Part shown: piece after piece, positions 32,200 to 33,906 of the stretch
Numbering within the stretch: the stretch's first letter is position 1
How the letters are laid out: every line of letters starts with the position of its first letter
From: Obrimoposthia wandeli
Lineage: Eukaryota
Direction of reading: 5' to 3'
NCBI GenBank assembly: GCA_977020255.1
Contig: CDROCS010000275.1
Location: forward strand, 186,001 to 250,000
Length of the DNA stretch: 64,000 bases
The notes under the pieces: generated by a model
Seen by the model: the letters and a program-made list of their open reading frames with translations, nothing else
Database searches by the model: none
Told to the model about the DNA's origin: nothing
Translations under genes and position numbers: made by a program

Positions 32200-33854
32200 T
32201 ATTAAAAAAAATTGCTATTAAAACTAAAATAGAGAAGATGACCAGGTAATGCAGGGTGATATATCTGCAAAAGCCGATCTCAAATGACATAAATAAAATT
32301 GTTAATTGATAAAAATTAAAAACATGATTCTTACAACTTTAATAAATTACGTGAAAATAGATTTGAATTAATTCTTTCAATTGCATTATTGAATTAATTG
32401 AATTAAACTTAGTTGTTTGATAATTTTTGTTGTTGTTGTTTTAATGACATTAAATCAAAATTTGATTAACTAATAGAAATCAGTGTAAAATTTAATTTTC
32501 AATGAATTTGGCGTAAAATTAAAATTTGATTTTGATTTTAATGTGATAAAATCGAAACTTTTTTTTAAATAGGTGTGAAATTTCGGTTAATATAAATTAA
32601 TTTCAATGCATTCGGTATTAATTTAATTAAACTTTTTTTAATGAAGTGGAATTAGGGATTTTTGAATTTAAATTTGAAATCAGTACAAAACTTGGTTACA
32701 TTTGATTTTGAAATTTAAAAATAGTAACAATGAGTACCCCAAAAAAGTGACGATTCGGTGGCATGACTTGTCACCGAATCGTCACTTAAAACCACTAAAA
32801 GGTAATTTATTATACCAAATCGTCTTAAAAACTTATGTCGCTAAAAATTGAACTATTTAGTTTAAATTAAAGCTTCTGGATTCATATCGTTTTATTACTA
32901 CCATTCTTGAAAAATAAGTTAGTTACCTTCCTAGTTTACCATATAGCGCTAGAGATTTTACCTTCTACCTTAAAAATTAAAATAAAGTTATAAAACTATT
33001 TTGACTCAGTTAAAAATTACTATCCATTATAGCATATGAATAAAATTTTCATAGAAACGCACACATATAATTGTTAAATTGGGACAACAAAAGACAAAAA
33101 TGTTAATTACAAATGGTATATTATTTGATAACTTTGTTTCTAAAAATCCCTTGTCAAATTCAATAATTGATCAATGTTGTTCCTAAAAATCTCTGTATAA
33201 ATTCAATAATGGATCAATGTTGTTTCTAAAAATCTAATTCCGTTTTTCTTTGATAAATTGTATTAATAATTGTATTGATAATTAAAAACAGTCACAACAC
33301 TTGATCACGTCGGGAAACGAATTTGTATAATTGGGATTCTTTCAAATTTTGTCAGGATAGAAATATTTCTAGTTTTTGAAATTTGTCAAAATAATAATAA
33401 TTTTTATTTTAACTTGGCCATATATAGGATATGCAAGCGCAGCACACATACACACCGATGGCAGCGGATCTGGGCAGAGAGGGAAAATGTATATCAATTT
33501 AATCCATCACACACATACACACGAGAGTGCATGGGGAGAAATAAAGGGATATCTGCATCTGCATCGAGATAACAGCAGTAAGGAACACACATACACAAGA
33601 GTAAAACGAGTGAGTGTGTGAGTGAGCAGTGAGTGTGAGTGAGTATGAAAGTTGAGTGAGTAAGTGAGTGAGTTGAGTGATGTCCGCTGTGTGAGTGTGT
33701 GTGTGTTGAATTGTGCACTTGCGCACACCAACATCACATGTCGACGATATTCGTCGGCACATGAAAGGGGGAATATTTCCCTCTTTTCCCTGGCATTTTA
33801 TTATTGTTATCTCTGGCTTCGCGGAATCCACCGCGAAGTTAGAGATAACAAGCC

Positions 33855-33906
33855 ATCTCCCTGATGAGCCCGGCAAGGCGAAACGGGCTTTTTTCCCGTC
33901 GGAGAT
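33855..33906 (+). ncRNA. Canonical type I hammerhead ribozyme; predicted cleavage after C33900
   Basis: atctcc-CUGAUGA-GCC(cggcaa)GGC-GAAA-CGGG(ctttttt)CCC-GUC-ggagat; perfect core and perfect stems I, II and III. Confidence 0.92.

Follow-up and report, generated by a model that had tools for sequence, protein, structure and literature searches.

The 64-kb window (the whole stretch of DNA that was analysed) contains a type I hammerhead ribozyme motif on the plus strand at 33855..33906, hereafter copy A. It consists of a 6-bp stem I (33855-60/33901-06), the CUGAUGA core strand (33861-67), a 3-bp stem II with the loop CGGCAA (33868-70/33877-79), the GAAA core strand (33880-83) and a stem III, in which the A33883-U33899 pair is followed by 4 bp (33884-87/33895-98) and a 7-nt non-palindromic loop. 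The GUC triplet places the predicted cut after C33900. To search for such motifs, we scanned both strands of the window for CUGANGA, GAAA and UH in combination with three stems. Copy A was the sole match with an intact core on either strand, and none of 200 dinucleotide shuffles of the window yielded a match with the same stem lengths. The scan (6/3/4 bp) therefore confirmed the intact core, the GUC triplet and the three paired stems that a first-pass annotation had reported. Every core position of the hammerhead criteria as listed in PMC3088659 (C3 U4 G5 A6 N7 G8 A9, G12 A13 A14 A15, U16 H17) is present, together with three stems, and the motif ends within stem I. An antisense (ambisense) hammerhead in the surrounding module was also considered and discarded, as the scan of the minus strand was empty. 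Checked against Rfam, as had been proposed, copy A gave a full-length type I match to RF00163 (Hammerhead_1, model positions 1-45 of 45, 29 bits, E 1.4e-5) in a 181-nt search, which nevertheless remains under the gathering cut-off of 34 bits. At the gathering score no Rfam match was obtained in the whole window, and the search of a 4-kb piece returned a weak type III match only.

The ribozyme is embedded in a high-copy module of ~305 bp (33680..33985, plus strand), which was delimited by fold z, hairpins and summed depth. In 5' to 3' direction, the module starts with the end of a GT microsatellite, continues with three hairpins predicted by folding (about 33685-33738, 33739-33759 and 33763-33787), a long hairpin and the ribozyme, and closes with a tail of ~80 nt, which carries a terminal hairpin (33952-33980, plus strand, fold z -1.9) followed by TT and ends in TTAATTAA. 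The 3' limit is uncertain, because the repeats at 33979-34056 were skipped in the depth comparison. With this row of hairpins, the module reached a fold z of -10.0 on the plus and -7.4 on the minus strand. The long hairpin is located directly 5' of stem I (33804..33851, plus strand). It had been annotated with 19 bp (33806-33849) and is indeed present there, with two G-U pairs, extending to 21 bp. A miRNA reading of this hairpin was rejected, as it produced a weak generic match with 23.5 vs 80 bits.

Upstream of the module we found a (GAGT)n-type microsatellite (33601..33679, plus strand; TRF 33608-33680, period 4), which varies between copies and coincides with contig joints and loose ends, and a lower-copy, non-coding 5' body (33070..33600, plus strand, 5' limit approximate). 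The latter contains a 43-bp tandem duplication (33134-33235, plus strand), an AT-rich stretch and, from about 33415, a CA-rich GC island; unique contigs stop at 33098 and a multi-copy contig spans 33260-33449. The first-pass annotation had described 33420-33850 as a GC-rich, non-coding island terminated by the ribozyme. Its composition (44.8 % GC vs 31.8 % for the window) and the lack of coding sequence agree with this description, but the ribozyme does not end the element, because repeated sequence goes on to ~33985 and a lower-copy repeat reaches up to ~33070-33100. Instead, the ribozyme sits ~80 nt from the 3' end of the module.

A diverged second member of the family, copy B, is located 25.8 kb away at 7942..8143 (plus strand, nhmmer E 5.8e-7). 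It is homologous to 33722-33945 and its flanks differ from those of copy A, while a sensitive search found no third copy in the window. In copy B, which folds weakly (z -1.8), about 27 nt of the long hairpin are missing. Its hammerhead (8052..8105, plus strand) has kept 14 of 14 stem pairs, with two compensatory (both-side) changes and one one-sided change in stem I and one one-sided change in stem II, although covariation computed from two sequences did not beat the control (141 of 500 shuffles). In the core, U4 is replaced by G and the G10.1-C11.1 pair is weakened to G-U; judging from the change at U4, this hammerhead is probably inactive. Copy B is preceded by a GC-rich 5' body (7040..7941, plus strand, GC 0.40-0.51 per 100 nt from 7100 on), which measures ~0.9 kb and cannot be aligned with that of copy A.

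We analyzed the bodies of both copies for coding potential. Pfam searches of six frames each resulted in no family for 11 of the 12 frames and a chance-level match (E 0.069) in the twelfth, the stop density corresponded to the shuffle level, and the best plus-strand frame of the copy B body had no protein relatives among 1.84 billion representatives. No tRNA gene was called by ARAGORN, and the search for target-site duplications at the copies yielded low-complexity AT matches only. Neither of the two copies is arranged in tandem. The first-pass annotation had further proposed to look for a linked Penelope-like element (PLE) with reverse transcriptase (RT) and GIY-YIG. Using patterns of the known motifs, we found no Penelope RT or GIY-YIG gene in the six frames of the window.

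To estimate the abundance of the family, we made use of four public runs (X1-X4) that contain the stretch; they derive from one sample of one study, probably the window's own source, and do not provide independent support. Contigs were aligned to 32600-34900 at 80 % likeness. The depth of unique contigs was about 47 (X1), 6.5 (X2) and 3.1 (X3), and X4, which has no clear single-copy value, does not enter the ratios. Summed depth adds overlapping contigs and is an order of magnitude rather than a copy number; on this scale, the ribozyme segment 33832-33908 reached 22,336 (X1), 20,533 (X2) and 15,108 (X3) times the single-copy depth. For X1-X3, the corresponding values were 11,500-13,700 x for 33678-33831, 4,600-6,000 x for 33909-33985, 1,400-1,900 x for 33601-33677 and 17-440 x for 33062-33600. 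The module thus exceeds single-copy sequence by a factor whose order of magnitude lies between thousands and about twenty thousand. The decrease in the 5' direction is expected for reverse transcription that starts at the 3' end, but could also reflect bodies that have diverged below the 80 % limit instead of truncation. One X1 contig with a near-single depth of 25.8 shares 33803-33914 only and carries 530 other letters upstream. No head-to-tail joint was present among the joints listed (15 of 26), for which it should be considered that contigs were short and the tail repeat was skipped. The proposal that the ribozyme marks a mobile family is well supported by the depth of 4,600-22,000 x single copy in three runs and the diverged copy at a distance of 25.8 kb. 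The 5'-fading depth together with the structure kept on the plus strand suggests that this mobility proceeds through RNA. A separate observation concerns a loose end at 33872 in run X1, where two contigs go on as a hammerhead whose loop 2 is GAAA and whose stem III differs; judged by these letters, the sample contains a second hammerhead family.

Folding was predicted with an energy model without tertiary contacts or Mg2+. For the window copy, the active fold was calculated at -14.9 vs -18.5 kcal/mol for a rival fold, i.e. 3.6 above the minimum, with a probability of ~0.001. The label "perfect" in the first-pass annotation is therefore appropriate for the core letters, but not for the predicted folding with a stem II of 3 bp. 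Position 33876 is of particular importance here: according to the variant alleles, taken from 40 of 115 variant rows, G accounts for 75-83 % of the contig depth in all four runs, whereas the window copy has the minority A, which makes up about one fifth to one quarter of the depth. A G at this position creates a fourth pair in stem II with a GGCA loop remaining, and this majority loop matches the RNnA loop-2 motif described in PMC2632901. With the majority base, the active fold became the minimum-energy fold, with a probability of 0.45 for the isolated ribozyme and 0.43 with short flanks. In long context the probability was 0.04-0.08, and in growing transcripts it varied from 0.002 to 0.27 (0.04-0.27 for the longer contexts whose end is at 33912 or beyond). 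The low values in long context arise because stem I competes with other pairings.

Based on these predictions, the window copy, with its 3-bp stem II, would belong to a minority subtype and cut poorly. Copies with the A allele may nevertheless be a working subtype, given the Schistosoma-like loop: the Schistosoma loop 2 described in PMC2632901 has C as its first and A as its last letter, and so has the loop of the window copy. For a tertiary contact between loop 2 and stem I, a distal part of stem I with an internal loop could not be clearly defined. As stem III comprises 4 bp plus the A-U pair and a non-palindromic loop, the family ribozyme is expected to cut as a monomer. In the long hairpin, C at 33840 was found in 34-52 % of the contig depth and converts a G-U into a G-C pair. 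Altogether, the read alleles favour a structure on the plus strand.

Two other short repeats flank the element, 34063-34170 with a summed depth of ~14,000 and 32620-32750 with ~7,400 (both X1). An HDV-like fold at 34095-34170 was faintly visible by eye and was discarded, since it had no Rfam support and a fold z of +1. A tRNA-like repeat at 34680-34775 (minus strand) with the B-box-like sequence GGTTCAATTCC had a summed depth of ~9,500 vs 47 for single copy (X1); neither ARAGORN nor Rfam called it, and it is probably an old tRNA-derived SINE. The window also contains a giant Ty3/gypsy element (47400-64000, plus strand), whose gag and pol are separated by a mononegavirus-like fusion glycoprotein domain. 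It also encodes BIR, RING, two protease domains, RT, RNase H, integrase and a dual-specificity phosphatase, is interrupted by stops and frameshifts, and resembles the planarian Burro elements as they are described in PMC6431247. Pieces at 5331-5671 and 48132-48467 and at 10545-10646 and 32101-32206 are 73-84 % alike to its upstream non-coding part, occur in both orientations and are probably LTR remnants. Furthermore, we detected a gypsy RNase H fragment at 39174-39656 and, at 16108-17968 (plus strand) and 24754-26430 (minus strand), transposase genes of the hAT (zf-BED, dimerisation domain) and MULE types, both of them decayed. An innexin frame at 41491-42516 (minus strand), whose best named relatives are found in flatworms (49-62 % identity), is flanked by inverted repeats of 280 bp and 93 % likeness (41200-41474 and 44309-44578), and possibly represents a captured or duplicated piece inside a TIR-like element. 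Together, the innexin relatives and the likeness to Burro elements mark the window as animal DNA and its host as a flatworm, probably a planarian.

To find relatives elsewhere, we searched public collections. The core pattern resulted in 122 viral-contig stretches; the other searches yielded 0 and then 29 matching stretches in metagenomes, 3 viral stretches without a core and 0 matches in prokaryote genomes. Of the 30 metagenome matches, 28 are type I hammerheads whose stem I has at least 4 bp. In the type I hammerheads of the metagenome loci L123-L150, which lie on GC-rich microbial contigs, the stem III loops are of the GNRA type; these loci are unrelated to the flatworm repeat, and two of the contigs (L137 and L150) contain two hammerhead copies each. 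Since copies A and B matched none of 153 loci outside their ribozymes, the metagenome and viral matches represent unrelated microbial ribozymes. We also found no description of the family in the mostly open-access literature on planarian hammerheads and on hammerheads in Helitrons, so that it is apparently undescribed so far.

Taken together, we consider it fairly probable that copy A is a solo copy of an abundant non-coding, non-autonomous, Penelope-mobilised retroposon of the non-LTR retrozyme or pLTR-derived kind. This is directly supported by the motif, the folding potential, the abundance, the dispersal, the 5'-fading depth and the lack of coding sequence, while cleavage, circles and the Penelope partner would correspond to what is known from related families. 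In such a cycle, source copies would be transcribed by read-through and the transcript would be cleaved after GUC, optionally followed by circularisation of the cleaved RNA. A Penelope-like enzyme acting in trans would then reverse-transcribe and insert the RNA, and the 5' body would often be lost during insertion. A solo copy with both sides of the cut site would need a circular, multimeric or uncut template, and the origin of such both-sided solo copies is a known puzzle of these elements. By analogy, the ribozyme of the family may work like a retrozyme or pLTR ribozyme.

Several other explanations have to be weighed against this retroposon. The module could belong to an autonomous Penelope-like element with a canonical hammerhead, as its 3' pseudo-LTR and long non-coding 3' region, both copies then being 5'-truncated tails that do not reach the ORF. 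The 5'-fading depth and the shared 3' module in front of which the bodies of copies A and B differ are compatible with this idea, and hammerheads in pLTRs, common 5' truncation and canonical hammerheads in some PLE clades are described in PMC8557442 and PMC4209133. We regard it as unlikely all the same, because ~600 nt (copy A) and ~900 nt (copy B) upstream of the module are without coding trace, the Schmidtea PLE hammerhead in the supplement of PMC4209133 is a different, minimal motif, and ~80 nt follow the cut site vs the 30-40 described in PMC8557442. Even less probable is a SINE similar to Sm-alpha, in which a LINE would move a polymerase III transcript by recognising its terminal hairpin and TTAA-rich tail, and the ribozyme would release the units from longer RNAs. 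The module does end in a 3' hairpin followed by a short simple-repeat tail, but no match to the A-box or B-box consensus was found in copy A or B, the tRNA gene search was negative, and the sequence contains internal T runs (33889-33894 and 33796-33799), which tend to terminate polymerase III. A dispersed high-copy hammerhead repeat is known from the same phylum (PMC8490949, PMC6765202), yet the schistosome hammerheads presented in PMC8490949 have a very short stem III.

A different mode of mobility would apply to a non-autonomous Helentron (DINE-1/HINE-like) with a captured hammerhead, which would spread by rolling-circle DNA transposition and whose hairpins would act in single-stranded DNA. 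DINE-1/HINE elements are described in PMC4067079 with sub-terminal inverted repeats of 11-15 bp, the 5' copy lying 2-4 nt from the terminus, a 3' palindrome near the end, flanking Ts and no target-site duplication. Comparable traits of copy A are TGCACTT at 33714-33720 with its complement at 33933-33939, ~46 bp from the apparent 3' end, the terminal hairpin at 33952-33980 followed by TT, a short inverted repeat adjoining the 5' TGCACTT copy, and microsatellites. In addition, an extended inverted symmetry between 33700-33800 and 33855-33955 was reached in 9 of 2000 shuffles only, and DNA mobility would account for both sides of the cut site being kept in solo copies. The details do not fit: the inverted repeat has a perfect part of no more than 7 bp (10/13) vs the 11-15 bp given in PMC4067079, it is not terminal, as repeated sequence goes on upstream of it, and it is absent from copy B, so that the sub-terminal repeat typical of HINEs was not found. 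Contigs have GT repeats right up to the inverted repeat and other letters after 33941, and the G-U to G-C and compensatory changes suggest an RNA structure on the plus strand. We therefore judge a Helentron origin to be very unlikely. Equally little credence is given to the broader version, a dispersed fixed-end element, at the extreme Helentron-like, that keeps a monomer-competent hammerhead under selection in ~ten thousand solo copies. If true, it would join a DNA rolling-circle transposon with a self-cleaving RNA, and the solo copies would clip host transcripts reading through them. Finally, the motif of copy A could have arisen by chance, or it could be a single ribozyme that the host has domesticated within an intron or UTR. 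The RF00163 score below the Rfam cut-off and the predicted misfolding of the window copy would be in line with this, but the 0 of 200 shuffles, the very high summed depth and the second, diverged copy largely refute it and leave it hardly credible.

Abundant repeats with a type I hammerhead are well known from animals, flatworms included, and the Penelope-mobilised retroposon proposed here is therefore ordinary in kind. Its ribozyme is sturdier than the minimal Penelope type, likely active as a monomer, and present in perhaps ten thousand copies. In a probable planarian, a tractable regeneration model, it would be handy for the question of how both-sided solo copies form and whether they clip host transcripts.

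Animal non-LTR retrozymes are one of the closest known systems. By Cervera and de la Pena 2020 (PMC7229834), they are characterized as canonical type I hammerheads in tandem repeats of 150-450 bp with thousands of copies, and platyhelminths are mentioned; solo monomers and a derivation of retrozymes from pLTRs have been described as well (Li et al. 2026, 10.64898/2026.07.22.740005). Like the retrozymes of PMC7229834, the module has a canonical type I motif, a monomer-stable helix III and thousands of copies, and both are non-coding, a few hundred bases long, below 50 % GC and strongly self-paired. Testing these points one by one, we found a non-coding unit of ~305 bp with low GC, self-pairing and high copy number. 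In contrast, retrozymes are tandem by definition, whereas copies A and B are both solo, and the module differs from them by its variable longer 5' bodies and microsatellites. Accounts of pLTR tails, monomer-active invertebrate hammerheads and schistosome repeats are given in PMC8557442, PMC7761336, PMC6765202, PMC8490949 and PMC6155905. For most animal hammerheads a stem III of 1-2 bp is given, compared to 4 bp and a 7-nt non-palindromic loop in copy A.

The second system are the hammerheads of pLTRs (PMC4209133; Craig et al. 2021, PMC8557442), which share with copy A the type I fold near the 3' end, the dispersal, the abundance fading in the 5' direction and the microsatellites. The minimal motif of animal PLEs, as defined by Cervera and de la Pena 2014 (PMC4209133), is a different one: the ribozyme described here lacks the long helix II, the extra base before 10.1 and the palindromic helix III stub, and has a stem II of 3-4 bp and a full, non-palindromic stem III. 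An ORF and a partial copy, in tandem or inverted, as in the arrangement of PLE pLTRs, are both absent from the window. In Terminon and Athena elements, reverse-complement telomeric repeats lie directly behind the hammerhead, whereas copy A has one CCCTAA at 33961, 55 nt behind stem I. We take CCCTAA to be the reverse-complement telomere unit; it does not occur in copy B. HINEs, which are not known to carry ribozymes, differ from the module by the hammerhead itself. The schistosome Sm-alpha and Sj-alpha repeats and W-elements (PMC8490949, PMC6765202) are, like the module, high-copy flatworm repeats with a type I hammerhead, a likeness read from the motif, while the module has no polymerase III boxes and a longer stem III than Sm-alpha and Sj-alpha. 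By motif, abundance and layout, the family may belong to the retrozymes or to one of the other two kinds, pLTR hammerheads and schistosome repeats.
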